64,000 nt of DNA from Vicinamibacterales bacterium. Lineage in GTDB: Bacteria > Acidobacteriota > Vicinamibacteria > Vicinamibacterales > UBA2999. Every line of letters begins with the position of its first letter. Position 1 is the stretch's first letter. The position numbers and the translations under genes are program-made. The notes beneath the pieces were generated by a model. That model ran no database searches and was not told the origin of the DNA. It saw only the letters and a program-made list of their open reading frames with translations. Positions 26,580-60,552 of the stretch are shown here, one piece after another. Location of the stretch: positions 14,573 through 78,572 of the forward strand of contig JBOGIW010000612.1 in NCBI GenBank assembly GCA_050748045.1. Direction: 5' to 3'.

Positions 26580-26599
26580 ACCATCCACAGGACGAGACA

Positions 26600-32634: not shown

Positions 32635-32647
32635 GCCGGAGACTGTC

Positions 32648-35322: not shown

Positions 35323-35459
35323 ATCTCCTTTCGTCCGGACAGCCGATGGCGGCCTGGCCCGCAACCGGCTACGCTTCTCGACCACGGCGGATTCTTCCGC
35401 CGGGCCTTCCTCGAGCTTCCGACATGTCTGGCGGAAGCCCGTTCATCGAAGGTGAGCCG

Positions 35460-35765: not shown

Positions 35766-35794
35766 TTCTCGCGCTGACCTTCCGAGGCCGAGCG

Positions 35795-38359
35795 ATGGCT
35801 GTTGATCGCGCAGCGTTCGTCGCCGATGCGCCACTCGACGCGGCACGCGAGCGGACCACCTCCGCGCCGCTGCACGTGTGGGAACACGAACGGCCGCTGC
35901 CGGGCGGCGACTGGGTCATCTGGCGTCCGACGGTCCTTCGCGGCACCGGCTTCCCGGTGTCGACCATGGCCGGTCTGGCGGGGATGCAAGCGCCATCGGC
36001 CGCGGACGAGTACTCCGACACTCGGGCCGACGTGATCCGTTTGCGCCGGCTCGCACTTGCGCAGATCGGCCAGGATCTGCGGGCGTGTCCTCCGAGCGCC
36101 CGCGCCGCGCTCCGTGCCAGGCGGCGTCGTATTCGTCAGGGGAGAATCGCGCGCGACGCCACGACTCACATCGAACGGGCGCTGGCATCCGCGACGGAGG
36201 CGCGCGTCGCGGCGCACGCTCGGTTGATGGAGGTGTACCGGGCGGAGACGCAGCTCATCGACGCGCGTCTTGCCGGGATCCTGGCCGACCCCCGCTTTCG
36301 CGAAGCAGTGCGGTGGCAAAATCCGCGCGCGCTCTCGCTGATCGATCGCAGGTTTCAAGCGCCGGCAGGCGCACGCGCCGACCGTCGCGCCGCAGGCGAT
36401 CTCGTCGCGATGCTCATTCAGCGCTACGCGCTCAAGAACGACAGCATCGGGTTCTTTGGACCGGTGGGGTGGGGCTCCCTTTCCGAGCAGGAGATGACGG
36501 TCGACATCTCGCCGGGTGCCGGCTTGCTCGCCCGCCGCGCGGTGTACTTCGAAGGGTGGTGCATCGACGCGCTCGCCGACGCGCTCGACGCGCATCCATC
36601 GGTCAGGTGCTGGACCGCGCCCCGTCTCGCCGGCGGCGTCTGGCAGGGAGAGAACGGCGTCGTGCACGTGCCTCTGGTTGGGCAGGTGGCCGTATCGGAA
36701 GGCGAGCGCCGTGTCCTGGCGTTGTGCGACGGGGAGCGCTCCGCGCGGGAGATCGCCGACGTCGTGCTCCGCCACCCTGAATCGGATCTGCGTTCCGAGG
36801 ACGACGTGTTTGCCGCGCTTCGTGCTCTCGTCGACAGACGGGTGCTCGTCTGGAGACTGGACGTCGCTCCTCAACTTCATCCCGACCACGAGCTCCGCAG
36901 GCGTCTCCATCGCATCGGCGATCCCCGGTTGCGCCAGGAGTGCTTCGCCGCGCTCGACGCGCTGGTCGAAGCGCGCGACGCGGTTGCGCGCGCCTCAGGC
37001 GATCCCGACGCACTCGACGAGAGGCTCACCGCGCTGAACACGACGTTTACGGGTCTCACAGGTCGCGCGCCGACGCGCCGCGTCGGACAGATGTATGCCG
37101 GCCGCACGCTGGTATACGAAGACTGCCGCCGTGCCGGCCGGGTCACCCTCGGCGCTGCATTCCTCGCGCGGCTCGGTCCGCCTCTCACGCTTGTCCTCGA
37201 GAGCGCCCGATGGGTGGCGGCGGAGCTCGCACGTGGATTCCGGGTGCAGATGCGGCAGTGTTATGCCGCGCTCGCGCGTGAACGGCGGGATGCGGTCGAC
37301 GCGCACGAGTTCTATACACGAGTCACGCAGATCCCGCTCGACGAACGGATGGCGCGCATTCGCGACGTGGAACGGCGATTCCGTGAGCGGTGGCAGTTCG
37401 CGCTCGGCGTGGACGGAGAGCCGCGCCGAGTGAGCCGATCGGTGGACCAGATCGCGCTCCGCGCCCGCGAGGCCTTCCTCTCGCGCTCGCCGCTATGGAG
37501 CAGGGTGAGGTTCCTCAGTCCGGACGTGCTGGTGGCCGCCGATGGCCCGGAAGCATTCCGCCGTGGCGACTTTCACTGCGTGCTCGGCGAGATCCACAGC
37601 GGCAACGGACTCCTCTGGTCCGCGCTGGCTTCGCAGCATCCCGATCCGCAGGAGCTCGCGGACGCGGTCGAGCGCGATGCGCGCGACGTCACGCCTATCG
37701 TGACCCAGGTCCTCAAGAGCGACTGGTCGGCCCGGCTGAACGTCGCGGCGCGTCCCCCGTGCGGCTGGCGGTACGAGTTTCACGACGATCGACCGAGCCA
37801 GCCCGGTTGCCGACCGATGCCGGCGGCAATGCTCGTTCCATCGGATGACGGCCTCACGGTGACGATGCGGACGCGCGACGGCAACCACGAGTTCGACGCG
37901 ATCGAGTTGTTCGGTCTGCCGCTGTGCTGGGAGGTGGACAGCGTCCTCAAGCAATACCTCCCGGACGCACCTCACGTGCCCCGCGTGACGATCGGCGCCT
38001 TGACTATCGCGCGCGAGCGTTGGTGCGCCACCCGCGACGAGCTGCCGTTCGTCACCGAGCCCGACCGTGCGGCGCGCTTCGCTGCGCTGCGCGCGTGGGC
38101 GCGCGGCCTCGGGCTCCCGCGACGCGTGTTCTACAAGTTCCCGCGCGAGCGCAAGCCGTGTTATCTGGACTTCGACAGCCCGCTGTACAGCGATCTCTTC
38201 CTGAAAGGCGTGCGCAGCCTCGAAGAGGGCATCGCGGTTCGCCTCGACGAGATGTTCCCGGGAATCGCCGAGACATGGCTCGCAGACGGCACCGGCGACC
38301 GGTACACCAGCGAGTTCCGGTTCGCCACTCGACTGGCGAGTCCCGGGTGCCTGGCATGA
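35795..38359 (+). CDS. Small LanB-like protein: lantibiotic-dehydratase N-terminal (glutamylation / aminoacyl-tRNA-using) domain only, no elimination domain (PEARL-like)
   Basis: 854 aa. WVIWRPTVLRGTGFP, ADPRFREAVRWQNPRAL and QRYALKNDSIGFFGPVGWG resemble the conserved 'dp.f.eAl..aSp.L' and '..Y..R...R.TPFGLFAG' blocks of LanB N-terminal domains. The length fits the ~800-aa N-domain. No SpaB_C-like C-terminal region follows. ATGA overlap with the next gene. Confidence 0.6.
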   Translation: MAVDRAAFVADAPLDAARERTTSAPLHVWEHERPLPGGDWVIWRPTVLRGTGFPVSTMAGLAGMQAPSAADEYSDTRADVIRLRRLALAQIGQDLRACPPSARAALRARRRRIRQGRIARDATTHIERALASATEARVAAHARLMEVYRAETQLIDARLAGILADPRFREAVRWQNPRALSLIDRRFQAPAGARADRRAAGDLVAMLIQRYALKNDSIGFFGPVGWGSLSEQEMTVDISPGAGLLARRAVYFEGWCIDALADALDAHPSVRCWTAPRLAGGVWQGENGVVHVPLVGQVAVSEGERRVLALCDGERSAREIADVVLRHPESDLRSEDDVFAALRALVDRRVLVWRLDVAPQLHPDHELRRRLHRIGDPRLRQECFAALDALVEARDAVARASGDPDALDERLTALNTTFTGLTGRAPTRRVGQMYAGRTLVYEDCRRAGRVTLGAAFLARLGPPLTLVLESARWVAAELARGFRVQMRQCYAALARERRDAVDAHEFYTRVTQIPLDERMARIRDVERRFRERWQFALGVDGEPRRVSRSVDQIALRAREAFLSRSPLWSRVRFLSPDVLVAADGPEAFRRGDFHCVLGEIHSGNGLLWSALASQHPDPQELADAVERDARDVTPIVTQVLKSDWSARLNVAARPPCGWRYEFHDDRPSQPGCRPMPAAMLVPSDDGLTVTMRTRDGNHEFDAIELFGLPLCWEVDSVLKQYLPDAPHVPRVTIGALTIARERWCATRDELPFVTEPDRAARFAALRAWARGLGLPRRVFYKFPRERKPCYLDFDSPLYSDLFLKGVRSLEEGIAVRLDEMFPGIAETWLADGTGDRYTSEFRFATRLASPGCLA

Positions 38360-40137
38360 CCGTCACCAATCGCTTCGAAGCCCGGGCCGCGGCGTCTCCG
38401 GAGGCCGTTGCGCTGATCGCCAACGATCGGACGTGCACGTATCGCGCCCTCAACGCGCGGGCCAATCGGCTGGCGTGGCATCTCCGCGAGCGCGGCGTCG
38501 GACCGGAGACGATTGTCGGCATCTGCATCCCACGAAGCATCGATTTCGTCGTGGCGCTGCTCGCGGTCGCGAAAGCCGGGGGTGCGTACCTCGCCATCGA
38601 CGTCGATCATCCACGCCAGCGAGCCGAGTGGATGCTGCGCGACACCGGCGCGCGTCTTCTCCTGGCGACGGCCGACACCCGCGGACTGGTCTGCGCGGCG
38701 CCCGTGATCGTGCTGACCGAGCTCGATGAGGTCCTGGACCATCAGCGCCACGACAATCCGGCCTCGCCTGCCAGCCCCGATGGCCTCTTCAAGGTCGTTT
38801 ATACGTCGGGCAGTACAGGTCGACCCAAAGGCGTGCTGGTGCCGATGCGGGCCGTCCTGCACCGACTCGATGCGATGGCGGCCCGCTTCCCGTTCGTCAA
38901 CGGCGATGTTGCGCTGCTCCATCGATCGTCGATGATCGCCGGATCGTCGTGGGATGCGCTCGGCCCGCTCATCGCCGGCGTGCCGACGCTCGTGATGCCC
39001 ACGTTCGACCCGATGGATGCCGCCGTGTGGGAGCTGGTTGCGAGGACGCGTGTCTCGCATCTCGCCGCCGGACCATCCTTGTGGCACCTCATCCTGACCA
39101 TGGCGGAGCGGTCGGCCGTCCGCTGGGATGCGCTGCGCATGGTAATCGTCGGCGGCGAGCGTGCCAGCCGCAAGCTCGTGACACGTTTCGCTCGCGCCTT
39201 CCCGCACGCGTCTCTCGTCAACATCTATGGGCTGACCGAGAGCATCTATCCGTGCGGCTGCGACGCAACGCTCACCGCCGCCTGCGGATCGTACGTTCCG
39301 GCGGGAGGGCCGTTCCCGGACGTGTCCGTCGCCGTCGTCGACGACGCCGGACGCGCGCAGCCCCATGGTACGTCCGGACATATCTGCCTCGCAGGCCCGG
39401 GCACGGCACGCGGATATCTGCACGCGCCGAGCCTCACCGCAGAGAAATTCGCCCCTAATCCCTCGGGCGCCACGCCCGGCGAGCGCATGTTCAGGACCGG
39501 TGACCGGGGCCGGTGGCGCGCCGACGGGGTGCTCGAGGTGCTCGGCCGCCGCGACAATCAGGTGAAGGTGCGCGGAACACGCGTCGAGCTCGCCGAAGTA
39601 GAAGCGGTGCTGTCGGCGTCGCCCGGCGTCAGCGAAGCGGCCGTCACGAGCCACACGGCGGACGAGGGCGAATCGCGCATCGTCGGATACGTCGTGCCCG
39701 AGCCTGGCGTGTCGATTTCCATCCGCGAGCTGCGCGCGTCACTTGCACGCGCGCTGCCGGCGGGGGCCGTTCCCGCGGCGTTCGTCGTGCTCGCAGAGAT
39801 GCCGATCACCTCACAGGGCAAGGTCGATCGCGCGCGGCTGCCGGCGCCGGCGACCACGGGGGCCGACGACAGACACAGCGGCCCGGCGCCGCGCACGAAC
39901 ACCGAACGGGCCATTGCCCGGATCTGGCGGGAGCTGCTGAACGTACCTCAGGTCGGTGTGCACGACGACTTCATCAGTCTCGGCGGCACGTCGCTGGCCG
40001 GCATGTACGTCGCGTCGCGGATCCGCCAGGAGTTCGGAATCAGTTTGTCGTTTGATACGGTGCTCGGCGCACCGGGACTCGACGCGCTCGCCTCGTATGT
40101 CGACGCCGCGCAGGAGCGGAAGGCCCACGGCGCATGA
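38356..40137 (+). CDS. Stand-alone A-T didomain with a non-amino-acid (carboxylic/aryl/keto acid-type) adenylation pocket
   Basis: YTSGSTGRPKG, FRTGDRGRW, KVRGTRVELAEVE, QGKVDRARLP. T: FISLGGTSL. The position equivalent to Asp235 (FDxS) reads IAGSSWD, so Ala replaces Asp. The A5 core reads YGLTES instead of YGPTE. Confidence 0.85.
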   Translation: MTVTNRFEARAAASPEAVALIANDRTCTYRALNARANRLAWHLRERGVGPETIVGICIPRSIDFVVALLAVAKAGGAYLAIDVDHPRQRAEWMLRDTGARLLLATADTRGLVCAAPVIVLTELDEVLDHQRHDNPASPASPDGLFKVVYTSGSTGRPKGVLVPMRAVLHRLDAMAARFPFVNGDVALLHRSSMIAGSSWDALGPLIAGVPTLVMPTFDPMDAAVWELVARTRVSHLAAGPSLWHLILTMAERSAVRWDALRMVIVGGERASRKLVTRFARAFPHASLVNIYGLTESIYPCGCDATLTAACGSYVPAGGPFPDVSVAVVDDAGRAQPHGTSGHICLAGPGTARGYLHAPSLTAEKFAPNPSGATPGERMFRTGDRGRWRADGVLEVLGRRDNQVKVRGTRVELAEVEAVLSASPGVSEAAVTSHTADEGESRIVGYVVPEPGVSISIRELRASLARALPAGAVPAAFVVLAEMPITSQGKVDRARLPAPATTGADDRHSGPAPRTNTERAIARIWRELLNVPQVGVHDDFISLGGTSLAGMYVASRIRQEFGISLSFDTVLGAPGLDALASYVDAAQERKAHGA

Positions 40138-41015
40138 TCGCGAATCCCTCTGCTGAACATCAGGAGGCCGCGTGCGCGCCGGCTGTTCTTTCCGGCGCCG
40201 GCGAGCTGACCTGTCGCGATCTCAGGAGCCACCAGGACCTGGAGAGCGCGGCCGCGCTGGAAACCGAGATCTGGGGGTACACGGATCGTCTCGACGCGCT
40301 GCCACCCTCGCTTCTCTCGGCCTCGATCCGCGTCGGGGGCCTCCTGCTGGGCGCGTTCGACGCGGATCGCCTCGTGGGATTCGTCTACTCGTTTCCCGCG
40401 ATTCGGAACGGCGAGACGATCCACTGGTCGCATCGGCTTGGCGTCGCAGAAGCATACAGGAGCACGGGCGTCGGGCACTGGTTGAAGCTGGAGCAGCGGA
40501 GGCGTGTGGCCGCGCTCGGTCTCAACCTCGTTGCCTGGACCTACGACCCTATGCTGGCGGCGAACGCGCACCTGAACCTGACGAAATTGCGCGCCACGGC
40601 GGCGCGATACGAAACTGACGTGTACGGCACCTCGAGCAGCCCGCTGCATGCCGGAATCCCGACGGATCGGCTCGTCGTGGACTGGCGGATCGGCGGCGCG
40701 ACCGGCGAACCCGACGCGGATCGAAGTCGTCGGCGCCACACCGCCATCTGCGACGCCCCGGTCGTGAACAGGACGCGACGCGGTCGCGTCTGGCCTGCAT
40801 GCGCCGCCCTCGAGCTCTCGTGTCCGTCAGATACCGTGCGCGTCGAGATTCCACTCGGGTTCACCCAGATGCTGCGCCGCGATCGCGGGCTGGCGCTGCA
40901 GTGGCGACTGGCGACGCGCGCGGTCTTCACGACGTATTTCGGTGCCGGATTCACTGCGGTCGACTTCGCCGTCTGTCGCGACCGCGGGCTCGGATGGTAC
41001 CTGTTGACGCGCTGA
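40134..41015 (+). CDS. GNAT-fold acyltransferase-like protein (COG3375-like), function unknown
   Basis: LETEIWGY...PSLLSASIRVGGLLLGAFD..LVGFVYSFPA...SHRLGVAEAYRSTGVGHWLKLEQRR.ALGLNLVAWTYDPMLAANAHLNLTKL resembles the 'predicted GNAT superfamily acetyltransferase' family. ATGA overlap with the previous gene. Confidence 0.45.
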   Translation: MIANPSAEHQEAACAPAVLSGAGELTCRDLRSHQDLESAAALETEIWGYTDRLDALPPSLLSASIRVGGLLLGAFDADRLVGFVYSFPAIRNGETIHWSHRLGVAEAYRSTGVGHWLKLEQRRRVAALGLNLVAWTYDPMLAANAHLNLTKLRATAARYETDVYGTSSSPLHAGIPTDRLVVDWRIGGATGEPDADRSRRRHTAICDAPVVNRTRRGRVWPACAALELSCPSDTVRVEIPLGFTQMLRRDRGLALQWRLATRAVFTTYFGAGFTAVDFAVCRDRGLGWYLLTR

Positions 41016-41053
41016 CTTCCGTCGCGACCGACGCATCCGTAGGAGTGCCGTGC

Positions 41054-43867
41054 ATGACCGTGCCGCCGCAGGACGGGCGTGAGCCCGAGCGAGAGTGTGA
41101 CATCGCCGTGATCGGCATGGCCGGGAGGTTTCCCGGCGCAAGGGACGTCGACGAGCTGTGGCGCAATCTCTCGAACGGCGTCGAGTCGATTTCGGAACTG
41201 ACGTCGTCGGACCTCGTCCAGGCCGGCGTGCCGCGAGCGGACCTCGAGCATCCCAACTATGTCCGCGCGCGCGGGCTGCTGGCGGACGCCGAGTGCTTCG
41301 ACGCGGCGTTCTTCGGAGTCACGCCGGCGGAAGCCACGGTCATGGACCCGCAGCACCGCCTGCTGCTGGAGTGTGCATGGGCGGCACTGGAGCACGCGGG
41401 GTACGCCCCGGACAGCGTCCCAGGGGTCGTCGGCGTCTACGCCGGCGCGAGTGCCAGCGATCACCGCGCCAGGCTGGGATCTCGCCCCGAGCTATGCGAT
41501 CTCCTCGGCGGCTACCTGGTGCAGGTTGGCAACGACGTCGATTTCCTCACGACGCGGATCTCGTACAAGCTGAACCTCAAGGGACCGAGCATCGCGGTGC
41601 AGACATCGTGCTCGACCTCCCTCGTCGTCGTCCATCTCGCATGCCAGGCCCTGTTGAACGGCGAGTGCGACCTGGCGCTGGCGGGCGGCGTGAACGTATC
41701 GACCCTGCGGCGCATCGGCTATCTCTATCAGGAGGCCGGGATTCGATCGCCCGACGGACACTGCCGGCCGTTCGACGCAGGCGCGAAGGGAATGGTCAGC
41801 GGTGCAGGGCTCGGCCTGGTGGTGATCAAGCCGTTGCGCGCCGCGCGGCGCGACCGCGATTTCGTTCACGCGGTCATCAAGGGTTCCGCCGTGAACAATG
41901 ACGGCCGCGCAAAGGTGAGCTACACGGCGCCGAGCGTGGACGGGCAGGCCACGGCCATTCGCGAGGCGCTGTCATGGGCCGCCGTCGATCCCGCGACGAT
42001 CGGCTATGTCGAAGCGCACGGCACCGGCACGCATCTCGGCGATCCCATCGAGATCGCGGCGCTCACCGACGTCTTTCGCGCCTCCACCTCGCGGCGCTCG
42101 AAGTGCCCCGTCGGGTCGATCAAGGCGAACATCGGCCACCTGTCGGCCGCGGCGGGCGTCGCCGGCCTCATCAAGACGATTCTGATCCTGAAACATGGAT
42201 GCGTCCCCCCGAACCCGTACTTCCGGGCGCCGAATCCGGAAGCGCGGCTCGACGAGAGTCCCTTCTACGTCAACCAGGGGGCGGTGGACTGGCCGGCGAC
42301 GGCCCATCCGCGCCGCGCCCTGGTCAGCGCCCTCGGCATTGGCGGCACGAATGCGCACTTGGTGCTCGAGGAAGCACCGGTGCACGCGCCGACAACCCCC
42401 TCGAACACCTGGCACGTCCTGACTTTGTCTGCCCGCACGGCATCGGCTCTCGATGCGATGACCCAGAACCTCTCGGGGCACCTCACCTCCGCGGCTGCGC
42501 CCTCGTTGCCGGATCTCGCCCACACGCTCCACGCTGGTCGGACCGGCTTTTCCTACCGCCGCGCGATCACATGCCGCGACATCGACGGTGCCGTGCGGGC
42601 GCTTCGCGGTGAGGAGGGCGCACGTGCATGGACGGGCGTCGCCTCGGAGGAGCCTCCGCCCGCCGCATTCATGTTTCCTGGCGTCGGCACGCAGTACGTG
42701 GGCATGGCGGCGGAGCTGTACCGCGAAGATGCGCTGTTCCGACAGGAGCTGGATCGATGTTTCGACGTCCTCGCTCGTCACTCGGACGTGAACTTCCGGG
42801 ACGTGCTCTACCGGCCTGACTCCCAGACCGATCCCACGACGATCGATCGCGCTGTCGTCGTGAATCCGCTCGTGTTCGCCGTCGCCTATGGCGTCGCGAT
42901 CCGCTGGACGCAGTGCGGAATTCGTCCGGCCGCGCTCATCGGCCACAGCCTGGGCGAGTACGCAGCCGCCACGCTGGCGGGCGTGTTCACGCTCGAGCAT
43001 GCGCTCGAGCTCATGTTGACGCGCGGCCGCCTCATCGAGCGCGTCCCTCCTGGCGCGATGCTCGCGGTACCTCTCTCCGAGGAGGAGACGCTTCCGTATC
43101 TCAACGACGACGTCTCGCTTGCATCCGTGAACGCGCCGACGGCGTGCATCCTGTCGGGGGCGCCTGCGGCAATCGCCGCAGTCGAGGCCGCACTGCACCA
43201 GCGTGGCACCGCGTGCCGGGCGCTGCGCTTCCCTCACGCTCCTCATTCCGCGATGATGGACCCCATCCTTGGCGAGTTCGCCGACCACGTTCGCGCGGCG
43301 GCACCGAAAGCTCCACGAATTCCACTGGTGTCGAGCGTCACCGGCACGTGGATCACGCCCGCGCAGGCTGAGGACCCGCACTACTGGGCCTCGCACCTTC
43401 GCCGCACGGTACGATTCGCCGAAGGACTTCGGTGCGTGTTGAGCAATCCGCGGCAGCTCCTCATCGAGATGGGGCCCGGCCGCAGCCTGAGCCGGCTCGT
43501 GAAGCGGCAGGGGGCGGGCGCGGCCAAACGACAGGTCATCCCCACGCTTTGCGCACCCGACGATGACACACCCGATCGGGAGCTGTTCGCGCGCGGGCTC
43601 GCCCGCTGCTGGGCGGCTGGCGTGCGGGTCGAGTGGACGCACTACACCGGCGCCGAGCCGCGGTACCGCGTGCCGCTGCCGACGTATCCATTCGAGCGAA
43701 CGCGGTATGCGCTCGAGACCAGCACGGGCGCGCCCTCGCCAAGCGATGCGAGCGGCCATACCGCGCGCACGGCCGACGATCGAGGGGCGCCTGGGTCGGA
43801 TCTGGAACGCGTCATCACCGACCAGCTTCGTCTGATGTCGGCGCAGCTCGACGCACTCCAGGGCTGA
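41054..43867 (+). CDS. Type I PKS fragment: KS-AT only (no ACP, KR, DH)
   Basis: KS: IAVIGMAGRFPGA, VQTSCSTSLVVVHLAC, EAHGTGTHLGDPIE, KANIGHLSAAAG. AT: GHSLGEYAAATLAG, FPHAPHSAMM (HAFH-like, suggesting malonyl). C-terminal tail GSDLERVITDQLRLMSAQLDALQG. AGGAG 8 nt upstream. Confidence 0.9.
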   Translation: MTVPPQDGREPERECDIAVIGMAGRFPGARDVDELWRNLSNGVESISELTSSDLVQAGVPRADLEHPNYVRARGLLADAECFDAAFFGVTPAEATVMDPQHRLLLECAWAALEHAGYAPDSVPGVVGVYAGASASDHRARLGSRPELCDLLGGYLVQVGNDVDFLTTRISYKLNLKGPSIAVQTSCSTSLVVVHLACQALLNGECDLALAGGVNVSTLRRIGYLYQEAGIRSPDGHCRPFDAGAKGMVSGAGLGLVVIKPLRAARRDRDFVHAVIKGSAVNNDGRAKVSYTAPSVDGQATAIREALSWAAVDPATIGYVEAHGTGTHLGDPIEIAALTDVFRASTSRRSKCPVGSIKANIGHLSAAAGVAGLIKTILILKHGCVPPNPYFRAPNPEARLDESPFYVNQGAVDWPATAHPRRALVSALGIGGTNAHLVLEEAPVHAPTTPSNTWHVLTLSARTASALDAMTQNLSGHLTSAAAPSLPDLAHTLHAGRTGFSYRRAITCRDIDGAVRALRGEEGARAWTGVASEEPPPAAFMFPGVGTQYVGMAAELYREDALFRQELDRCFDVLARHSDVNFRDVLYRPDSQTDPTTIDRAVVVNPLVFAVAYGVAIRWTQCGIRPAALIGHSLGEYAAATLAGVFTLEHALELMLTRGRLIERVPPGAMLAVPLSEEETLPYLNDDVSLASVNAPTACILSGAPAAIAAVEAALHQRGTACRALRFPHAPHSAMMDPILGEFADHVRAAAPKAPRIPLVSSVTGTWITPAQAEDPHYWASHLRRTVRFAEGLRCVLSNPRQLLIEMGPGRSLSRLVKRQGAGAAKRQVIPTLCAPDDDTPDRELFARGLARCWAAGVRVEWTHYTGAEPRYRVPLPTYPFERTRYALETSTGAPSPSDASGHTARTADDRGAPGSDLERVITDQLRLMSAQLDALQG

Positions 43868-43908
43868 TCGTTCCAGCTCGCCTCGCTCCTTCTCAGCGCG
43901 AGAGTTCC

Positions 43909-45336
43909 ATGCCAGACAAGTTCGAAGACGAGTGCGGCGTCTTTGGCGTGTACAACCACCCCGGCGCCGTCTCGCTTACCACGATCGGCCTCCTGTCGCT
44001 TCAGCATCGCGGGCACGAAAGCGCCGGGGTGGCGTGCAGCCGCGATGGCGTGCTCCATTGCGTTCGCGCCAAAGGGTGGGTGTCCCACCTCGCCGACCGG
44101 CACCTCGGCGGCGTCAGCGGATCCGCCGCGATCGGGCACGTCAGATACTCGACGTGCGGCGACAGCTCGCTCGCCAACGCCCAGCCTCTCGTCGTGGCCA
44201 CGCGCGACGGACACCTCGCGCTCTGTCACAACGGAAACATTGTGAACGCGCACGACATACGGACGACACTGCGCGATTCGGGCGCGACCTTCGACGGCGA
44301 CGGCGACACCGAGGTCGTTGCGCGACTGCTCGCACGACGATGGTCGGAGCTTCCGGAGCACGAGGCGTTCCGCAAGACGTTCGAGATGGTGCGCGGCGCC
44401 TACTCGATCGTCGTCCTGACCAGCGATCGCATGTACGCTCTGCGCGATCCGCTGGGCATTCGTCCGCTGAGTCTCGGCCGCATCGGCGACGCAATCGTGA
44501 TCAGTTCGGAGACGTGCGGGTTCGATGCCATTGGCGCCACACACGTGCGCGACATTCGTCCAGGCGAGCTGCTCGTCGTCGGCCGCGCGGGCGTCCGCTC
44601 CTTCCAATTCCAGACTCCCGCGCCGCTCTCCGCGCAATGTGTGTTCGAGTTGATCTACTTCGCCCGGCCCGACAGCGTGACGTTCGGTCACAGCGTCGCG
44701 GCGGTGCGCATGGCGCTCGGCCGAAGGCTCGCCCAGGAGCAGCCAGCCGACGCCGACGTCGTCGTGCCGATTCCCGATTCCGGCCTCTATTGCGGTATCG
44801 GCTATGCCCGTGGCACCGGCATCGGATGCGAGCTGGCGCTCGTTCGCAACGCGCACGTCGGCCGAACCTTCATTCGGCCCGACGTAGCGGAACGGCGCGC
44901 CACCATCGCCGCCAAGTACAACGTGATTCGCGATCTCGTCGCAGGCCGGAGGGTGGCGCTGGTCGATGACTCGCTCGTCCGCGGCTCCACGTGCGAATCC
45001 ATCGTCGCACGAGTCCGAGAGGCCGGCGCGCGCGAGGTTCACGTGCGAATCGCGAGTCCGGAAACGATCGGACCGTGCTACTTCGGCGTCGACACACCCG
45101 ACGAGGGCGACCTCTTCGCAACCGGTCGATCGGTCGCGGAGATGGCGCGGCTCCTCGGAGCGGACTCTCTGGCCTTTCTCAGTCTGGATGGACTGCTCCG
45201 TGCGGTTGCCGGTGCCACCGGCGGCTACTGCTCGGGCTGCTATACCCGCCGATATCCGATCGATCCGGACGCATCGCCGCGGACGGCACGATCCGTGGCG
45301 GCGCCGGCCCGTCTGTATACGGCGTGCACGAGGTAA
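43909..45336 (+). CDS. purF: Amidophosphoribosyltransferase (glutamine PRPP amidotransferase), B. subtilis-type with propeptide and Fe-S Cys ligands
   Basis: MPDKFEDE|CGVFGV (propeptide plus catalytic Cys1), LQHRGHESAG, PRTase motif VALVDDSLVRGST, Cys ligands in GPCYFGVDTP and GYCSGCYT. Confidence 0.9.
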   Translation: MPDKFEDECGVFGVYNHPGAVSLTTIGLLSLQHRGHESAGVACSRDGVLHCVRAKGWVSHLADRHLGGVSGSAAIGHVRYSTCGDSSLANAQPLVVATRDGHLALCHNGNIVNAHDIRTTLRDSGATFDGDGDTEVVARLLARRWSELPEHEAFRKTFEMVRGAYSIVVLTSDRMYALRDPLGIRPLSLGRIGDAIVISSETCGFDAIGATHVRDIRPGELLVVGRAGVRSFQFQTPAPLSAQCVFELIYFARPDSVTFGHSVAAVRMALGRRLAQEQPADADVVVPIPDSGLYCGIGYARGTGIGCELALVRNAHVGRTFIRPDVAERRATIAAKYNVIRDLVAGRRVALVDDSLVRGSTCESIVARVREAGAREVHVRIASPETIGPCYFGVDTPDEGDLFATGRSVAEMARLLGADSLAFLSLDGLLRAVAGATGGYCSGCYTRRYPIDPDASPRTARSVAAPARLYTACTR

Positions 45337-45343
45337 GTCTCGA

Positions 45344-46600
45344 GTGATCGCGGCTCCAGACGACGTGACCGGCGATTGGATCGTCGTGATGACCTGCCAC
45401 GGCGCCAGCGACGTCATGCGCATGACGCTGCAGATGCACGGCGATCGCGCGACCGCGTGCCTTGGCGGCTGTGCTTTCGAAGGTCGCGCGAGCGGCTCGC
45501 GCCTGGAGCTTCGGACGCCGGATGGTGCAACACCCGCCGCTCGGATCAGCGGGACCTTCGAGCGGCACGCGTTGTCGGGAGAGTATGTCGTCGGCAAAAC
45601 GCGCTGGACCTGGTCGGCCACGCGACCCGCCGGACGTGCCGCAGGGGCGTCGCGGACGCACGTGTTCGCGCCCACAACCTTTCATCGGATGTTTTCCGGA
45701 TCGATCCCGCCCGCATTGCACATTCGGTGCGGCGACCGCGTGAAGACCTGGACGCTCGACTCGTCGGGGATCGATGCCGACGGAGCACGGCGATCGCGAC
45801 CCGGTAACCCTCAAACCGGCCCCTTCTACGTCGAGGGGGCCGTTCCCGGTGACACGCTGGCGGTGACCTTCACGCGCATGCGCTTGAACCGCGATACGGC
45901 AACGTCGCGACGGAGGATCTGGAAGGACGCGGTCACGGCGGCGTATATCGAGAGCCGGCGCCCGCTTGCCGATCCCGACAGCGCGTGGCTGCTCGACCGC
46001 GCGAAGGGAGTGGCGCGGCCGGCGCAGCCGACTCCCGCGCTCGCCGGATATGCGGTGCCGCTCCAGCCGATGCTCGGGTGCGTAGCCGTGGCGCCGCCGT
46101 TCGACATGGCGGTCACGTCGCAGCATCCCGGGACGTTCGGAGGCAACATCGACTATGCCGGCATCCGTGAAGGCGTGACGGTGTACCTGCCGGTGTTTCA
46201 GATCGGCGCGCTCCTGTTCATCGGAGACGGCCACGCGGCCCAAGGCGACGGCGAGGTCACCGTCAGCGCGCTCGAGACGTCGATGGACGTGGAGTTCGTC
46301 GTCGACGTGCTCCCAGGGCGAACGCTGGCGACACCGTGCGCCGAAGACGCCGAATGCCTGATGGCGATAGGAATCGAGCGATCGCTCACGAGGGCGCTGC
46401 AGAGCGCCACCACCGAAATGGCGCGCTGGCTCGAACGCGACTACGGGCTCGACCGCGAAGAGGCCGCGACGGTGCTAGGGACGGCGCTGCGCTATGACAT
46501 CGCGCAAGTCGTCAATCCCCATCCGAGCGTCGTGGCGAAGCTGCCCAAGGCGGTGATGGCCCGGGTCCGCAAACCGCCTGTCAACGGTGAAAGGCGATGA
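45344..46600 (+). CDS. Acetamidase/formamidase-family amidohydrolase
   Basis: NPQTGPFYVEGAVPGDTLAV, GTFGGNIDY, LFIGDGHAAQGDGEV. The N-terminal ~100 aa are unusual. The start is uncertain (GTG 45344, 8 nt after purF). The stop overlaps the next NRPS start (ATGA). Confidence 0.75.
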   Translation: MIAAPDDVTGDWIVVMTCHGASDVMRMTLQMHGDRATACLGGCAFEGRASGSRLELRTPDGATPAARISGTFERHALSGEYVVGKTRWTWSATRPAGRAAGASRTHVFAPTTFHRMFSGSIPPALHIRCGDRVKTWTLDSSGIDADGARRSRPGNPQTGPFYVEGAVPGDTLAVTFTRMRLNRDTATSRRRIWKDAVTAAYIESRRPLADPDSAWLLDRAKGVARPAQPTPALAGYAVPLQPMLGCVAVAPPFDMAVTSQHPGTFGGNIDYAGIREGVTVYLPVFQIGALLFIGDGHAAQGDGEVTVSALETSMDVEFVVDVLPGRTLATPCAEDAECLMAIGIERSLTRALQSATTEMARWLERDYGLDREEAATVLGTALRYDIAQVVNPHPSVVAKLPKAVMARVRKPPVNGERR

Positions 46601-49600
46601 CCATGGATGCTTCATCCGATCGGCCCCTGCTGGTCCGCCGGCCACCTCAGACGCCGGCACCGCTGTCGTATGCGCAGCACGCGCTCTGGGTGGCGCAGCA
46701 GCTCCACGGACCCGCTGCGAAGTACAACGTTGTCACCGCATGGCGGCTGCATGGCCCGGTCGACCGAGCGGCCCTGTGCCGCGCCATCAATACCATCGTC
46801 GAGCGCCACGAGAGCCTGCGCACGCGCTTCGACGAGCTCGACGAGGAGCCGGTGCAGATCGTCTGCCCCGCGGCGCCATTCGATCTCTCCCCGGAAGACC
46901 TGACCGGCCTCGACGATGTCGCGCAGCGTCGGGCGGTGACGCAGGCGCTCGACGACGAATGGGCGAAGCCTTTCGACCTGCGACGCGCGCCGCTGCTGCG
47001 CGTACGTCTCCTGGAGCTCGGCACCGTCGAGCACGTGCTGATTCAGACGGCTCACCACATCGTGTGGGACGGCTGGTCGCGTGGAGTCTTCGCACGGGAG
47101 CTGAGCGCGCTCTATCGCGCGGCGCACCACGAGGTGCCGCATGGCCTCGCGGCTCTCGAGGTGCAGTGCGCCGATGCCGCGGTGTGGCAGCGCTCGCGGC
47201 TCACGGGGCCGCGCCTCGCTCACGGTCTCGGATACTGGAACGAGCAGCTGGCAAATGCACCTCAGGAGCTCACCCTGCCGTCCGATCGCCGCCGGCCGGC
47301 TGTGCGGCGGCAGGAGGGTCGCGCCCTCGACGTGCAGCTGTCGCCCGAGCTGATCGGCGCCGTCACGCGCTTCGGCCAGGCCAATCGCGCTTCCCTCTTC
47401 ACCACCCTCCTCGCGGGCTTTGGTGCCCTGCTGGCGCGGTACACGCACGCCTGCGACATCGTCGTCGGAACGCCCGTCGCCGACCGGCCCGACGCGCGGC
47501 TCGAGCCGCTGATAGGCCTCTTCACGAACGAACTGCCCATTCGAATGAAGATCGGCCCGGAGACAACGTTCCGGCAGCTGGTGAACGACGTGCGCGAGAC
47601 GACGCTTGCGGCGTATCGGCACAAAGAGGTGCCGTTCGACCGGATCGTGCAGGAGCTCTCGCCGCAACGGAGCCGCAACGCTGCTCCTCTGTTTCAGGTT
47701 GGATTCGGTCTACAGGATGCGACGTCGGCAGCCTTGACGTTGGCCGGCCTCGACGTCGAGGCGTGGCTCCGCGCCGAGCGTCTCCGGGCAAAGCTCGATC
47801 TCGAAGTGCAGGTGCTCGTCGACGGCGATCGCGCCAGACTGTATTGGCTTTACGACGCCGAACTCTTCGGCCGCGCCCGCATGGAGCAGATGGCCCGTCA
47901 CTATAGACAGCTGCTCGACGGGCTGACGGCCGATCCCGACGTGCCCCTGCACCGGCTCCCCATCGTGAGCGAGGAAGACCGCCTGGCGCTCGATGGATGG
48001 CAGGGCGCCGCGCACGAGATCGCGCCGGCGACGATTCCCGAGCTCTTCGAACATCAGGTAGACGCCACGCCAGCGCGGATCGCGGTTGCGAGCGGCACCG
48101 AGTCGCTGAGCTACGCGGACCTGGACAGGCTCGCAAACGCCGTCGCGCATCGCCTCCGGGTGTGCGGAGTCGGCCCGGAGACGATTGTCGCCGTGTGCGC
48201 GGAGAGGTCGCCGCAACTCGTGGCCGGCCTGCTCGCCGTCCTCAAGGCCGGCGGCGCGTATCTACCGATCGATCCCGCCTACCCGCGTGATCGGATTGCG
48301 TTCATGCTCGAAGACAGCGGCGCCGCGGTGGTACTCGCCGAACCTGGAACGCTGGAGCGCGTGGTGCCAGGAGACCGGACGATCGTCAATCTCGACGACT
48401 ATCGATGCGTCACGGCGGATCAACGGCACGAGACCCGGCGTCTCGCGCATCGGGCTACGGCGGCGAACCTGGCGTACGTGCTGTACACGTCGGGTTCGAC
48501 GGGACGGCCGAAGGCTGTGATGGTGTCGCGCGGCGCCCTCGCGAACCACATGGCGTGGATGAACTCGCATTTTCCGCTCGACTTGCACGATCGGATTTTG
48601 CAACGGACCGCCCTCAGCTTCGATGCCTCCGTCTGGGAGTTCTATGCGCCGCTTCTGACCGGAGCCCGTCTCGTCCTCGCACCACCCGAAAGCCATCCCG
48701 ACGGCGCAACGCTCACGCGATGGATGCGAGAAGAGGCAATCACCATCGTGCAAATGGTGCCGTCGCTCCTTCGCGTGCTGACCGAAGCACCGGACCTCGA
48801 GCGCTGCCTGTCGTTGCGTCGCGTGTTCTGCGGCGGTGAGCCTCTCACGAGCGAGCTGCAGCAGCGAGTGCGCGCGCGCCTGCCGAACGTCGAGCTGCAC
48901 AATCTGTACGGCCCCACGGAGGCCACCATCGATGCGACGTGGTGGCCCTGCGCATCGGGCACCGAATCCGAGGAGCCCGCGATCGGGCGCCCCGTGTGGA
49001 ACACGCGCGCGTATGTCGTGAACGCGGCGCTGCAGCTGGCACCGGCAGGCGTCACGGGTGAACTGTGTCTCGCCGGGGCCGGACTGGCGCGTGGCTACCT
49101 CCGACGGGCGGCGTTGACGGCCGAACGATTCGTTCCGGACCCGTACTGCGGTCGTCCTGGCGAGCGCATGTACCGCGTTGGAGACCTCGTGCGATGGCGA
49201 CCGGACGGAGCGCTCGACTTCGTCGCGCGAATCGACCATCAACTCAAGATCAGGGGTCTCCGTATCGAGCTTGGAGAAATTGAAGCCGCGTTGAGGGCAT
49301 TGCCGGGCGTGGCGCAGGTCGTGGTCGTCGGCCGTGAGGAGGAGTTTGCTCAGGCACGTCTGGTCGCCTACGTCGTCGCGTCCACGGCGGACGTGGTGAC
49401 CGCCGACACGCTGCGAAACCGGCTGCGCGAGACCTTGCCGGACTACATGGTCCCGGCCGCGTTCGTCTTGCTCGATGCGCTGCCGCTCATGCCGAACGGC
49501 AAGATCGACCGCAAGGCACTGCCCGCCCCCGAGGCCTCCGCCGCGGGGTACCGCCAGCCGCGGACGGCCGACGAACGAGCGCTATGCACGATTTTCGCGG

Positions 49601-49800
49601 AAGTGCTCGGCGTCGATCGTGTCGGCCTCGACGACGATTTCTTCGCCATCGGCGGCCACTCGCTCTCGGCGATGCGCGTGATCATGCGCTCGCGCGCGCA
49701 GCTGGGGATTCCGCTGTCGTTTCGAACCATGCTGGAGCACGGCACGGTGGCCGCCATCCTTCAGCAGGTCGCGAGCGCATCGGGGGAGGTCGCGCGATGA
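46597..49800 (+). CDS. NRPS module C-A-T (Gln-like code)
   Basis: C: LSYAQHALWV/HHIVWDGWS. A: YTSGSTGRPKA; code approx DAWQFGLIDK (the classical Gln code). T: FFAIGGHSL. Confidence 0.95.
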   Translation: MTMDASSDRPLLVRRPPQTPAPLSYAQHALWVAQQLHGPAAKYNVVTAWRLHGPVDRAALCRAINTIVERHESLRTRFDELDEEPVQIVCPAAPFDLSPEDLTGLDDVAQRRAVTQALDDEWAKPFDLRRAPLLRVRLLELGTVEHVLIQTAHHIVWDGWSRGVFARELSALYRAAHHEVPHGLAALEVQCADAAVWQRSRLTGPRLAHGLGYWNEQLANAPQELTLPSDRRRPAVRRQEGRALDVQLSPELIGAVTRFGQANRASLFTTLLAGFGALLARYTHACDIVVGTPVADRPDARLEPLIGLFTNELPIRMKIGPETTFRQLVNDVRETTLAAYRHKEVPFDRIVQELSPQRSRNAAPLFQVGFGLQDATSAALTLAGLDVEAWLRAERLRAKLDLEVQVLVDGDRARLYWLYDAELFGRARMEQMARHYRQLLDGLTADPDVPLHRLPIVSEEDRLALDGWQGAAHEIAPATIPELFEHQVDATPARIAVASGTESLSYADLDRLANAVAHRLRVCGVGPETIVAVCAERSPQLVAGLLAVLKAGGAYLPIDPAYPRDRIAFMLEDSGAAVVLAEPGTLERVVPGDRTIVNLDDYRCVTADQRHETRRLAHRATAANLAYVLYTSGSTGRPKAVMVSRGALANHMAWMNSHFPLDLHDRILQRTALSFDASVWEFYAPLLTGARLVLAPPESHPDGATLTRWMREEAITIVQMVPSLLRVLTEAPDLERCLSLRRVFCGGEPLTSELQQRVRARLPNVELHNLYGPTEATIDATWWPCASGTESEEPAIGRPVWNTRAYVVNAALQLAPAGVTGELCLAGAGLARGYLRRAALTAERFVPDPYCGRPGERMYRVGDLVRWRPDGALDFVARIDHQLKIRGLRIELGEIEAALRALPGVAQVVVVGREEEFAQARLVAYVVASTADVVTADTLRNRLRETLPDYMVPAAFVLLDALPLMPNGKIDRKALPAPEASAAGYRQPRTADERALCTIFAEVLGVDRVGLDDDFFAIGGHSLSAMRVIMRSRAQLGIPLSFRTMLEHGTVAAILQQVASASGEVAR

Positions 49801-52800
49801 CCACCGGCGCGCCACGCGAATACCCGGCGTCATTCGCCCAGGAGCGCATGTGGTTCCTGGAGCAGCTCGACACCGCGCAGTCCCACTACGGGATGTCCCG
49901 CGTGTGGCGCCTGCGCGGTCATCTGGATTGTGACGCCTTGTCGGCGAGCGTGGAAGCGCTGACGGCGCGGCACGAGATACTCCGCACGACATTTCGGATG
50001 CGACCCGACGGCTTGCGCCAGGTCGTACGAGATGACGCGGTGACGCTGGAGGTGGTGCCCGTCAGCGAGGCTTTGCTCGACGCGAGCGTCCGCGACATGA
50101 CCTCACGCCGATTCGATCTCGCGGTTGGTCCGCTCGCGCAGTTCAGGCTGTTGCGGCACTCCGACGAGCACTACGTGCTTGCGATCCTTCTCCATCACAT
50201 CGTGTGTGACGGCTGGGGCCTCGACGTGATGTTGCGTGAGCTCTCGGAGCAGTATGCCGCGCGGGTGCAGGGATGCGAGCCGGCCCTGCCGCCTCTGCCG
50301 ATGCAGTACGGCGACTACGCCGCGCAACAGCGGGAGGCATGGGCGAGCGGCCGACTGAACACCGATCTGGCGTTCTGGAGGCGCGAGCTCGATGGCGCGC
50401 CGACGGTCGTGAATCTGCCGGCCGACCGGCCGCGCCCGGCCGTCCGCAGCGGACGCGGCGCGCGCGAACGGCTGACCGTGCCCGCGGGTATCACGCGACG
50501 CTTACGGGCGACGGCGCAGCGCACGCGCACGACGCTGTTCATGGTGCTGGTGACGGCGTTCCACGCGCTCTTGAGCCGCTACTCCGGACAACGCGACATC
50601 GTCGTGGGCACACCCGTCGCCGGTCGCGCACGCCAAGCCACGGAGCCGCTCGTCGGCCTTTTCGTCAACACGCTTCCAGTACGTGCCACTCTCGCGGGGG
50701 ATCCGCCGTTTGACGCCCTTCTGCAACAGGTTCGGGAACGGCTATCCGAGAGTTACATGCACCAGGACGTGCCGTTCGAGAAGCTGGTTGCAGAACTGCA
50801 GATCGAGCGATCCACGGCCCATGCGCCGCTCGTGCAGGTGATGTGTGCCCTGCAGAACACGCCGAAGACGCTGTTCGCGCTGCCAGGCATCCGGATCGAG
50901 CGTATCGACGTACCGCTGGAGGTCGCGCGTCTCGATCTGACGCTTGCCCTCGAAGAGGTTGGCGATGCGCTCGCCGGCCGTATCGACTATGACCGCGATC
51001 TGTTCGACCCGGGAACCATCTCCCGATTGGCCGATCATTACGTGCGGCTGCTGGACGGAATCGCTACCGACCACAGGCGGCGCGTCTTGGCGCTTCCGCT
51101 CCTGAGCGAGGCTGAACGGACACACCTGCGGCACGCGACCCACGGTGCGCGTGTGACGCTGCCCGAAGCCGCGGGCATTCACGATGTCATCGCCGCGCAG
51201 GCCGCTCGAACGCCGGCGCGCCCTGCGCTGGCGTGCGACGACGCGTGTTTGACCTACGGCGAAATGAATGCCCGCGCGAACCAGCTCGCGCGCTTCCTGC
51301 AGCGTCACGGCGTCGGGCCTGATGTGACGGTCGCCATCTGCCTGGAGCGCGGCGTCGACGTGATCGTGGCGCTGCTCGCGGTGTTGAAAGCCGGTGGCGC
51401 GTATGTCCCGCTCGAATCGACCTTTCCCCGCGAGCGTCTGGCGTTCATGATCGCCGACTCCAGAAGTCGCGTCGTGATTACCAGGTCGCGCTTGCGCACG
51501 CCGCTCCCCGGTTCCATCGAGACGATCTGTCTCGACGAGGCGGCCGCCGACATCGCGCGGCAAGCGGCCGCGGAACCGAAGAGTGACGTACGGCCGGCAC
51601 ACCTCGCATACGTGATCTATACCTCCGGATCGTGCGGCCGTCCGAAGGGTGTAGCCGTCGAGCATCGCCAGATTCTGAACTACGTCGCCGCCGTGACGCG
51701 CGATCTGGCGTTTCCCTCGGGTCCCCTGGCGCTGGCGTCGACGATCGCTGCCGACCTCGGACACACGATGCTCTTTCCCGCGCTGTGCCACGGCAACACG
51801 CTGCACGTGCTGCCCGATGGCGTCATCCGCGACGGGCATGAGTGGCGTCGCTACTTCGATCGTCATGGCATCGCGGGACTGAAGATTACGCCGACTCACC
51901 TCAGGGCCTTGCTGGGACCGGCTCGCGACGCGAGCGCGTTGCCGAGCTGCCAGCTCGTGATTGGAGGAGAGGCGAGCACGTGGGACTGGATCGCGGAGCT
52001 CGAGCGGGCCAGCCCCGAATGCCGCATCTTCAATCACTACGGACCGACGGAGTGCACGGTCGGCGCAGTCGCGTGCGAGCTGTCGGCGATCGAGGAGCGC
52101 CACGGGCTCGTGCCGCTCGGCACGCCGCTCGCAAACACGACCGTGTACGTGCTCGACGACGCAGCGGAACTGTCGCCGACGTCGGTTCCGGGAGAGCTTT
52201 ACATCGGAGGTGACGGCGTTGCGCGGGGGTACCTCGGTCAGCCGTCGCTGACGGCGGAACGGTTCCTGCCCGATCCGTTCGCCTCCACACCGGGCGCGCG
52301 GCTGTATCGCACCGGGGATCGCGTGCGATGGCGCAGCGACCGCCGTCTCGAGTTCCTGGGACGTGTCGATGAGGAGCTGAAGGTGCGCGGGTTTCGGGTG
52401 CACCCGCGCGAGATCGAGTCGACACTGCGACAGCACGCGCACCTGAACGACGCGCTCGTCACCGCCCACATGGTGGATGGCCGGCAAGAGCTCGCCGCCT
52501 ACGTCGTCGCTGGCGCGCATGCGCCGATGAGTGAAGAGAGTCTGCGTGCGTGGCTCGCGGCACGGCTCCCGGACCACATGGTGCCTGCGACCGTCACGCT
52601 GCTTCCGGCATGGCCCCTGACGGCGAATGGCAAGCTCGATCGGCGGGCCCTGCCGGTACCGGAACCGCGGGCGCGCCGCGAACGAGCGTACGACCCGCCG
52701 CGGACGCCCGTCGAGGCGATACTCGCCGACATCTGGCAGGACGTTCTGGGCCTTCCTCGTGTTGGGATTTACGACAACTTCTTCGAGCTCGGCGGCGACT

Positions 52801-60374: not shown

Positions 60375-60552
60375 TGGGCGTACCTACACAACCGATCTGT
60401 TCTCAGTGTCGTTGACGGATTAGTGGCGAAGCGACGCCGATCGAGCGCGACAACTTACTGCCAAGTACGCGTCGAGCGGCGCGGCGCCGACCGCCGCGCG
60501 AGTCACGCGACCCTACGGCAGCAGTCAAGCGAACACGTCGCCAGACGGATGG

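Follow-up and report, generated by a model that had tools for sequence, protein, structure and literature searches.

The closest described enzyme to the one considered here is the [4Fe-4S] PurF of Bacillus subtilis (1AO0/1GPH), which combines a propeptide and catalytic N-terminal cysteine (Cys1), a glutaminase site of the N-terminal nucleophile (Ntn) type, a type I phosphoribosyltransferase (PRTase) motif and four cluster-binding cysteines. Copies of essential enzymes in biosynthetic clusters are known as resistant targets, for example, the proteasome beta-subunit SalI of the salinosporamide cluster and the IMP dehydrogenase of the mycophenolic acid cluster. Class II (Ntn) amidotransferase homologues in such clusters (GlmS-like, AsnB-like) are, on the other hand, nitrogen-installing biosynthetic enzymes. 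A purF gene is located at positions 43909–45336 of the forward strand of a 64,000-nucleotide stretch of contig JBOGIW010000612.1 from a Vicinamibacterales bacterium, an uncultured acidobacterium from soil, hereafter referred to as the window. Its product has all of the listed features of the B. subtilis enzyme, whereas the gene itself lies outside a pur operon, inside a nonribosomal peptide synthetase/polyketide synthase (NRPS/PKS) cluster. The gene is very probably a cluster-dedicated paralogue, rather than the housekeeping purF, and shares both transcription and inheritance with the NRPS/PKS operon. The branch of PurF to which it belongs, designated the secondary-metabolism (SM) clade, was found exclusively inside NRPS-type clusters in the ten contexts examined; subgroup SM-A comprises the window type, and SM-B is the second subgroup.

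The 475-aa product of the open reading frame (ORF) 43909–45336 begins MPDKFEDE|CGVFGV, with an 8-aa propeptide followed by Cys1. It scored 438.6 bits (E 3e-131) with the purF equivalog model TIGR01134, the trusted cutoff of which is 350, and aligned end to end and without large gaps with B. subtilis PurF (E 2e-120); the match to Pfam PF00156 was below the cutoff (20.4 vs 26.3). In the alignment with 1AO0, the glutamine-site elements are present, namely, the propeptide followed by the nucleophilic Cys, HRG, GHVRY, HNGN and the Asp of GDTE, the form taken here by the motif SD(T/S)E. The start of the flexible loop, GRTFI, and the motif binding phosphoribosyl pyrophosphate (PRPP), VDDSLVRGST, are also kept, the acidic pair and phosphate loop diagnostic of type I PRTases reading VALVDDSLVRGST. 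All four [4Fe-4S] ligands (C236, C382, C437 and C440 of B. subtilis) are aligned and are invariant in the clade. The TIGR01134 score and the alignment thus bear out the initial annotation, made from the sequence alone, which described a complete purF with intact propeptide and Cys1, PRTase loop and Fe-S cysteines. The canonical two-half reaction, in which glutamine and PRPP are converted to 5-phosphoribosylamine, glutamate and pyrophosphate, is almost certainly retained by the window enzyme and by the clade, since Cys1, the glutamine-site residues, the PRPP-binding motif (VDDS.VRG.T), the loop GR(T/S)FI and the Fe-S residues are invariant in all 16 members of the SM clade despite approximately 50% divergence. 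The GC content of the gene, overall and at third codon positions, matches that of the neighbouring cluster genes. An identical protein is on record as MGH9350174.1, from a 78.7-kb contig of a metagenome-assembled genome (MAG) named ‘Vicinamibacterales bacterium’.

The gene is tightly packed between its neighbours. The upstream ketosynthase–acyltransferase (KS-AT) gene ends with TGA at 43867 and the ATG of purF stands at 43909, leaving an intergenic spacer of 41 nt (43868–43908, +) with a purine-rich GAGAG just 5′ of the ATG. Downstream, a gene encoding a 418-aa amidase of the FmdA/AmdA (acetamidase/formamidase) family (45344–46600, +) starts with GTG 7 nt past the purF stop; this GTG is in frame with the stop at 46600, coincides with the start of the gene called on the Logan contig and is preceded by GAGG inside the 3′ end of purF. 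The amidase stop (46598–46600) shares the letters ATGA with the start of the NRPS gene that follows, the ATG of which stands at 46597. Neither purF junction contains a predicted promoter or terminator. The upstream gap and the amidase overlap had been given correctly in the initial annotation, the downstream gap is 7 rather than 8 nt, and the integration of the gene into the operon is supported. The Gln-coded module mentioned there was also recovered: the NRPS gene starting at 46597 (46597–49800, +) encodes a condensation–adenylation–thiolation (C-A-T) module with the A-domain code DAWQFGLID, presumably specific for Gln; the amino-acid meanings of this and the other codes are those of the published Stachelhaus code tables.

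The ordinary purF of the lineage differs in both sequence and neighbourhood. In a scan of 185,579 species-representative genomes, no cluster-type purF was found; the best matches, at no more than 54% identity, were housekeeping purF genes of Vicinamibacterales and other Acidobacteriota MAGs. The neighbourhood of ordinary purF, established by Pfam annotation of 31 acidobacterial loci with long flanks, is purB-purQ-purL-purF-(HEAT-repeat ORF)-purM-purN-tyrS; the pur-operon neighbours were seen in 26–31 of these loci and tyrS in 18. The HEAT-repeat ORF between purF and purM occurs in 26 of the 31 loci (e.g. L005 4289–15647). Genes similar to the C-A-T module, KS-AT or FmdA genes of the window were absent from all 159 ordinary purF loci, which together cover 2.0 Mb and of which 80 came from genomes and 79, used as negative controls, from metagenomes, the metagenomic ones being among the matches listed in a metagenome scan on universal PurF motifs, which also contained one known cluster. 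Housekeeping PurF proteins of Vicinamibacterales and other Acidobacteriota belong to the same phylum and enzyme family as the window protein, have a similar length and propeptide and include its best matches outside the clade (50–54%), but they form a separate clade, have other neighbours and evolve more slowly. They are approximately 77% identical among themselves and 51% identical to B. subtilis PurF, whereas the cluster PurFs share 51% identity with these enzymes and 42% with that of B. subtilis; the root-to-tip distance is 1.00 for the cluster copies vs 0.79 for the housekeeping ones. The window purF, with its neighbours KS-AT and amidase, falls in the separate clade in 100 of 100 bootstraps and is not an orthologue of the housekeeping gene.

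In a database of 5.8e9 protein clusters, the only proteins more than 55% identical to the window PurF were P0002 (74%), P0003 (63%) and P0004 (61%), below which lies a continuum of 50–54% matches annotated as amidophosphoribosyltransferase, Vicinamibacterales entries included. The arrangement KS-AT/purF/(radical-SAM protein, PEP-utilizing protein)/FmdA/NRPS is common to the three relatives, and the SM-A synteny therefore extends to four of four clusters. The contig of P0002 contains a truncated ORF matching the C-terminal portion of the window KS-AT at 58% identity, purF, FmdA and a cut NRPS fragment (63% identical to the window C-A-T module CAT1). That of P0003 contains genes of a radical-SAM protein, a 94-aa ORF, a LanB-like protein, A-T, a 300-aa ORF, KS-AT, purF, a HemN-like radical-SAM protein, PEP-utilizers_C, FmdA, C-A-T and C-A-T-C. 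The contig of P0004 contains an NRPS with a terminal thioesterase (TE), aminotransferase-C-A-T, fragmented KS-AT, purF, a radical-SAM protein, FmdA and an amidohydrolase. Relative to the window, purF is 74, 63 and 61% identical in the clusters of P0002, P0003 and P0004, while the neighbouring genes are 58–64, 55–57 and 48–68% identical, respectively; the identity of purF is at least that of every neighbouring gene, except part of KS-AT in locus L003. Thus, as for a dedicated enzyme, the position of purF is conserved and the gene co-diverges in four of four clusters (61–74% for purF, 48–68% for its neighbours), in which it ranks with the most strongly conserved genes.

The clade extends beyond these four. 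P0017, 54% identical to the window PurF, differs from housekeeping PurF to the same extent as do the cluster copies, and a profile of five sequences retrieved further proteins at 646–681 bits against a housekeeping baseline of approximately 630. Subgroup SM-B comprises P0017, P0247–P0255, P0261 and P0285, bringing the SM clade together with SM-A to 16 sequences. The clade was monophyletic in 100/100 neighbour-joining (NJ) bootstraps, with values of 93 for SM-A and 100 for SM-B; the trees were computed on Kimura distances with one outgroup, and the housekeeping sampling, following the search ranking, was mostly acidobacterial. In an exhaustive hidden Markov model search of 1.84e9 representatives, one clade representative scored 821 bits and the next protein 533; accordingly, the SM clade is discrete and rare.

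Acidobacterial housekeeping PurF and B. subtilis PurF have 183 conserved positions in common, and 27 of these carry a different residue in the SM clade. The same derived residue is found across the clade in I6V, H133R, G302A, V332I, S354C, Y384F, I395F and I404M; position 240 is Leu in the clade, His in housekeeping enzymes and Tyr in B. subtilis. Changes in or near the 5-phosphate loop include T352 to S/A/N and the above-mentioned S354 to C, and changes at the base of the flexible loop include position 307 and Y308. The changed positions show no domain bias (13 N-terminal vs 14 C-terminal, Fisher p = 0.84), and the distribution between the glutaminase and PRTase halves was rejected as a discriminator of resistance models. 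The equivalents of the feedback-site residues D282 and K305 of B. subtilis and P410 of E. coli are the same as in housekeeping enzymes and are uninformative.

All ten SM clade contexts examined, four of SM-A and six of SM-B, are NRPS or other secondary-metabolite clusters, vs none of the 159 ordinary purF loci. The six SM-B contexts are all secondary-metabolite clusters of differing architectures. The context of P0017 contains a LOG-family gene, purF, A-T-TE, an HAD hydrolase and a LanKC-like gene. In that of P0249, C-A-T-C-T-TE, a type II thioesterase (TEII), two ABC genes, a LOG-like gene, purF, a sulfotransferase, a GT8 glycosyltransferase, a free T and a free C are followed by a HemN-like radical-SAM gene, a nitroreductase, an acyl-CoA dehydrogenase and an A domain. 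The contexts of P0251 and P0253, whose contigs reach 562 kb and have a GC content of 55%, contain C-A-T-TE (code DLTKVGEV, Asn), two ABC genes, TEII, a CmlA-like hydroxylase, purF, a free T, GT2 and KASIII. The context of P0252 consists of A-T-C, MacB, TauD, TEII, purF, a free T and GT28, with an overlap of 4 nt between TEII and purF and of 17 nt between purF and T. In the context of P0285, CmlA-like, SDR, methyltransferase, DAHP-synthase-like, deacetylase and racemase genes precede purF, after which a phosphopantetheinyl transferase gene follows. The LOG-family (Lysine_decarbox/LDcluster4) phosphoribohydrolase-like gene lies directly 5′ of purF in the P0017 and P0249 contexts, an HAD phosphatase gene being present in addition in one of them. 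A compact, repeatedly assembled nine-gene cluster with 55% GC, made up of C-A(Asn code)-T-TE, two ABC genes, TEII, a CmlA-like beta-hydroxylase, a purF paralogue, a free T, GT2 and KASIII, was observed at L169 1–14100 and in L170 (also in L166/L167). In L168, ORFs of 401 and 87 aa past purF were considered as a C domain and a carrier protein; they have no convincing motifs and were not counted.

PurF is a textbook housekeeping enzyme, and the finding of a discrete, catalytically intact branch of it exclusively in NRPS-type clusters leaves two main readings, biosynthesis and resistance. The biosynthetic role, in which the window PurF makes phosphoribosylamine for the pathway, is tentatively favoured, at somewhat less than an even chance. 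PurF would supply phosphoribosylamine, in which ribose 5-phosphate bears an activated amine; an acyl or peptidyl intermediate attached to a carrier protein would capture it through a C domain, a TE or an acyltransferase, and the product would be an N-acyl-ribosylamine resembling glycinamide ribonucleotide. The ribosylamine group could then stay in place, with glycosylation or dephosphorylation to follow in some clusters, or be cut down to a primary amide, and the FmdA-type amidase might have as its substrate an amide that this step forms or uses up. This role is favoured because NRPS clusters of unrelated architecture share the clade, a pattern expected of a portable tailoring or building-block enzyme more than of a common target of many different products; because it is repeatedly, and often translationally, coupled to free carrier proteins, near free C, TE, TEII or GNAT-type acyl-transfer enzymes; because the neighbouring LOG phosphoribohydrolase, HAD phosphatase and glycosyltransferases act on ribose-phosphate or sugar; and because other Ntn amidotransferase homologues in clusters, as is generally known, install nitrogen. 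The LOG, HAD, glycosyltransferase and free carrier or condensation neighbours make sense if a ribose-phosphate amine is an intermediate, and have no obvious place in a resistance model. The broader proposition, that an undescribed PurF clade feeds 5-phosphoribosylamine into assembly lines, the N-acyl-phosphoribosylamines then being glycosylated, dephosphorylated or cleaved by LOG enzymes to the primary amide, is more doubtful and is put forward only as a possibility.

A number of points weigh against the biosynthetic role. To our knowledge, no natural product with a phosphoribosylamine-derived unit made in this way has been described, and neither such a product nor any report of purF or amidophosphoribosyltransferase in connection with clusters, NRPS or resistance was found in the open-access literature. 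Phosphoribosylamine is very labile and would need direct hand-off, the enzymes that might capture it (C, TE, GNAT-type) being candidates only, and LOG-like, HAD and glycosyltransferase genes are absent from the window's own cluster. The ten contexts were chosen by profile score, not at random, and four of them were read from gene tables alone. Long-branch attraction between SM-A and SM-B may have contributed to their grouping, although the derived residues shared by the two subgroups argue against such an artefact. The co-occurrence of two purF copies in one genome is deduced rather than observed, the second copy not having been seen. Finally, a resistant copy of a target would present precisely the same picture, an intact enzyme from a separate clade within a cluster.

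Self-resistance by target duplication, proposed in the initial annotation, would mean that the product inhibits PurF, or causes its pseudo-feedback inhibition, and that a divergent, insensitive copy sustains purine synthesis in the producer. Two of the three signs commonly sought in ARTS-type analyses were found, namely, the location inside a cluster and a phylogeny that departs from that of the housekeeping copies; the enzyme is intact throughout and could replace the housekeeping one, the 27 changed positions, including T352, S354, Y308 and position 307, could alter inhibitor or nucleotide binding, and a Gln-coded module follows the purF region directly. The intactness, the in-cluster location and the separate clade on which the proposal drew therefore stand, whereas nothing ties the cluster product to PurF. 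The divergence analysis suggested there gave a separate clade (100/100 NJ bootstraps) with an unchanged glutamine site, and the idea of a glutamine mimic fits poorly with this result: with Cys1 and the whole glutamine pocket invariant in the 16 members, a covalent mimic should still hit the copy, and it would also hit other amidotransferases, which are not duplicated here. Furthermore, the clade occurs in at least five cluster architectures, all of which would have to make PurF inhibitors, the tight link with free carrier proteins and the presence of LOG-like, HAD and glycosyltransferase genes nearby find no explanation, the clade changes are concentrated in neither domain (13 vs 14), and the equivalents of the presumed feedback residues, uninformative as they are, match those of housekeeping enzymes. 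Resistance is, accordingly, regarded as rather unlikely, though it deserves consideration.

Less probable still is a role in flux, whereby a deregulated PurF raises the pools of phosphoribosylamine, purine-derived compounds or glutamate and no PurF-derived atom enters the product directly. Cluster-embedded copies of primary enzymes often serve supply, as the DAHP-synthase-like gene in L168 may illustrate; the LOG-like genes beside purF could recycle ribose 5-phosphate, and the changes at position 307 and Y308, together with the loss of basic residues past the RGxT loop, might weaken nucleotide feedback. None of the steps of the cluster, however, has an obvious need for purines or for intermediates of their synthesis, purF is the only pur gene in the window, and the strict KS-AT/amidase position, as well as the carrier-protein coupling elsewhere, exceeds the needs of a general supply gene. 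Neither precursor supply nor resistance is proven, and the precursor-supply alternative of the initial annotation is closer to the biosynthetic pattern. A glutaminase delivering ammonia to a partner, such as the aminotransferase/beta-amino-acid module or the FmdA-type amidase, with a vestigial or regulatory PRPP site, would account for the fact that the constant SM-A neighbours (KS-AT, ACP-aminotransferase NRPS and amidase) all deal with nitrogen; the invariance of VDDS.VRG.T, GR(T/S)FI and the Fe-S cysteines in 16/16 members despite 50% divergence argues for a working PRTase half and makes this improbable. The fallback of the initial annotation, that this is the only, vertically inherited purF of the genome and adjoins the cluster by chance, draws on the second purF of the MAG being inferred rather than directly seen, and is effectively rejected as extremely improbable. 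The gene shares 51% identity with the purF genes of its order, which are approximately 77% or more identical among themselves, the cluster synteny is conserved on four contigs, ordinary purF always lies in the pur operon, and the gene stands inside a tightly packed operon with gaps of 41 and 7 nt. What is seen is not a single, vertically inherited purF with normal purine-operon neighbours in the relatives: those without the cluster carry another purF, which evolves slowly and lies in a pur operon of the usual kind.

The surrounding cluster, encoded on a single strand, spans 13 kb to 57.6 kb of the window, the GC content of which is approximately 68%. A-domain codes were extracted against GrsA, the sequence of which reproduces DAWTIAAICK. 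According to the domain search and these codes, the gene at 13188–20564 (+) encodes a terminal NRPS C-A(Val-like)-T-C-A(Asn code)-T-TE, and that at 20589–26579 (+) an acyl carrier protein (ACP)-aminotransferase-C-A-T protein with a Ser code and an FkbM methyltransferase insert. A free-standing A-T didomain is encoded at 38161–40137 (+) and a 293-aa protein with weak GNAT (acyltransferase) similarity at 40134–41015 (+); in the P0003 cluster, a 300-aa unannotated protein occupies the same slot between A-T and KS-AT, the likeness being one of position alone. The KS-AT didomain PKS protein without its own ACP (40799–43867, +) lies directly 5′ of purF in all SM-A clusters with a visible upstream region; its true start is probably just after 41015, since the KS domain begins at residue 101 of the ORF from 40799. 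Downstream of the C-A-T module, genes encode C-A(Asp code)-T-C (49584–54350, +) and C-A(unknown code)-T (54390–57605, +). The codes of the further modules of the cluster comprise Gln, Asp, Val-like, Asn and two unknown ones. The free A-T, whose code AGWAIGIYCK is without Asp235, the residue binding alpha-amino groups, probably activates a carboxylic acid without an alpha-amino group as the starter unit.

The PKS module appears to be split, KS-AT being encoded at 40799–43867 and its likely ACP in the distant gene 20589–26579, fused to a class III aminotransferase. The N-terminal ACP (LGADSLLL) of the latter protein likely partners the ACP-less KS-AT to give a beta-amino acid-forming module; an orthologue of this protein sits immediately 5′ of KS-AT-purF in locus L003. 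The Ser-coded A domain of the same protein is interrupted by the FkbM-type methyltransferase, which suggests a beta-amino acid followed by (O-methyl?)serine as the output of the split module. The gene order in the window cluster is not collinear with the likely assembly order. Genes of an HPPD/HmaS-like dioxygenase, an A-methyltransferase-T protein (code DIFAFGVII) and a class I/II aminotransferase lie consecutively at 28619–33970 and together resemble a gene set for an arylglycine-type residue or a modified aromatic one.

Genes of the type found in pathways for ribosomally synthesized and post-translationally modified peptides (RiPP) are present within the window cluster at 26576–28591, 35555–38359 and 4418–6634. 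They comprise a B12/radical-SAM ‘RiPP maturation C-methyltransferase’ (TIGR03975, 504 bits vs a cutoff of 282), a LanB-like protein with the Lant_dehydr_N (glutamylation) part only and a C39-peptidase ABC exporter; these genes may represent a hybrid or scaffold-peptide (PEARL-like) sub-pathway. In the P0003 cluster, the 94-aa ORF lies between the radical-SAM and LanB-like genes, while no convincing small precursor ORF was seen at 35250–35560 of the window. Past the last NRPS gene, at 58000–64000, the GC content drops from approximately 68% to 62%; a MacB-type permease gene (57930–60374, −) and an ABC ATPase gene (62999–63775, −) flank approximately 2.6 kb without a clear long ORF.

Two further observations concern the genes next to purF. 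The cluster amidase (45344–46600) is 55% identical to the amidase of the P0003 cluster and 55–57% identical to stand-alone acidobacterial homologues in ordinary contexts (L085; P0142 context), and may be either fast-evolving or recruited more than once; the FmdA-like amidase was rejected as a cluster-specific marker, equally similar homologues (50–57%) occurring in ordinary non-cluster contexts. Between purF and the amidase, two of the four SM-A clusters contain genes of a HemN/ChuW-like (class C) radical-SAM protein and a stand-alone PEP-utilizers_C protein (PEP/pyruvate-binding TIM barrel), located at L002 1614–3967 and on the JGI contig of P0003, with fragments in L003; both genes are absent from the window, and a HemN-like radical-SAM gene is also present in the P0249 cluster.

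If the biosynthetic role is correct, assembly lines would gain in phosphoribosylamine a new building block or carrier of nitrogen, and donation by PurF would be a new way to install nitrogen or a ribosyl group in peptide natural products; the compact nine-gene cluster of L169/L170, whose size permits heterologous expression, offers the best system in which to examine what purF does. Should the resistance reading hold instead, these clusters would encode natural PurF inhibitors, a target class for which no cluster-linked precedent was found. In either case, the clade-specific residues, among them L240, C354, F384, F395 and M404 (B. subtilis numbering), provide a simple marker for mining such clusters in the largely unexplored Acidobacteriota.

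In comparison with B. subtilis PurF, the window copy is more distant, approximately 42% identical vs 51% for acidobacterial housekeeping enzymes, with clade-wide changes at the 27 of 183 conserved positions. Like the SalI and IMP dehydrogenase copies, it is an intact paralogue of an essential enzyme, of a distinct clade and located in a biosynthetic cluster. Unlike them, the PurF clade spans several unrelated architectures and is coupled to carrier proteins and to enzymes of sugar or ribose-phosphate, and there is no evidence that a product targets PurF. With the GlmS-like enzymes of aminosugar formation and the AsnB-like enzymes of amide or beta-lactam formation, which are generally known as in-cluster nitrogen installers, it shares the glutaminase fold and the Cys1 chemistry. 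These enzymes have SIS or synthetase acceptor domains, whereas the window PurF keeps a PRPP-binding PRTase, which would place the nitrogen on ribose 5-phosphate; no precedent for such delivery by PurF in clusters was found in the open-access literature. For the subsequent step, VibH of vibriobactin synthesis is a free-standing condensation enzyme acylating soluble amines; we know of no VibH-type activity towards phosphoribosylamine. VibH exemplifies how an acyl group on a carrier protein might be transferred to a small free amine such as phosphoribosylamine, and a free C and a free T adjoin purF in the P0249 context.

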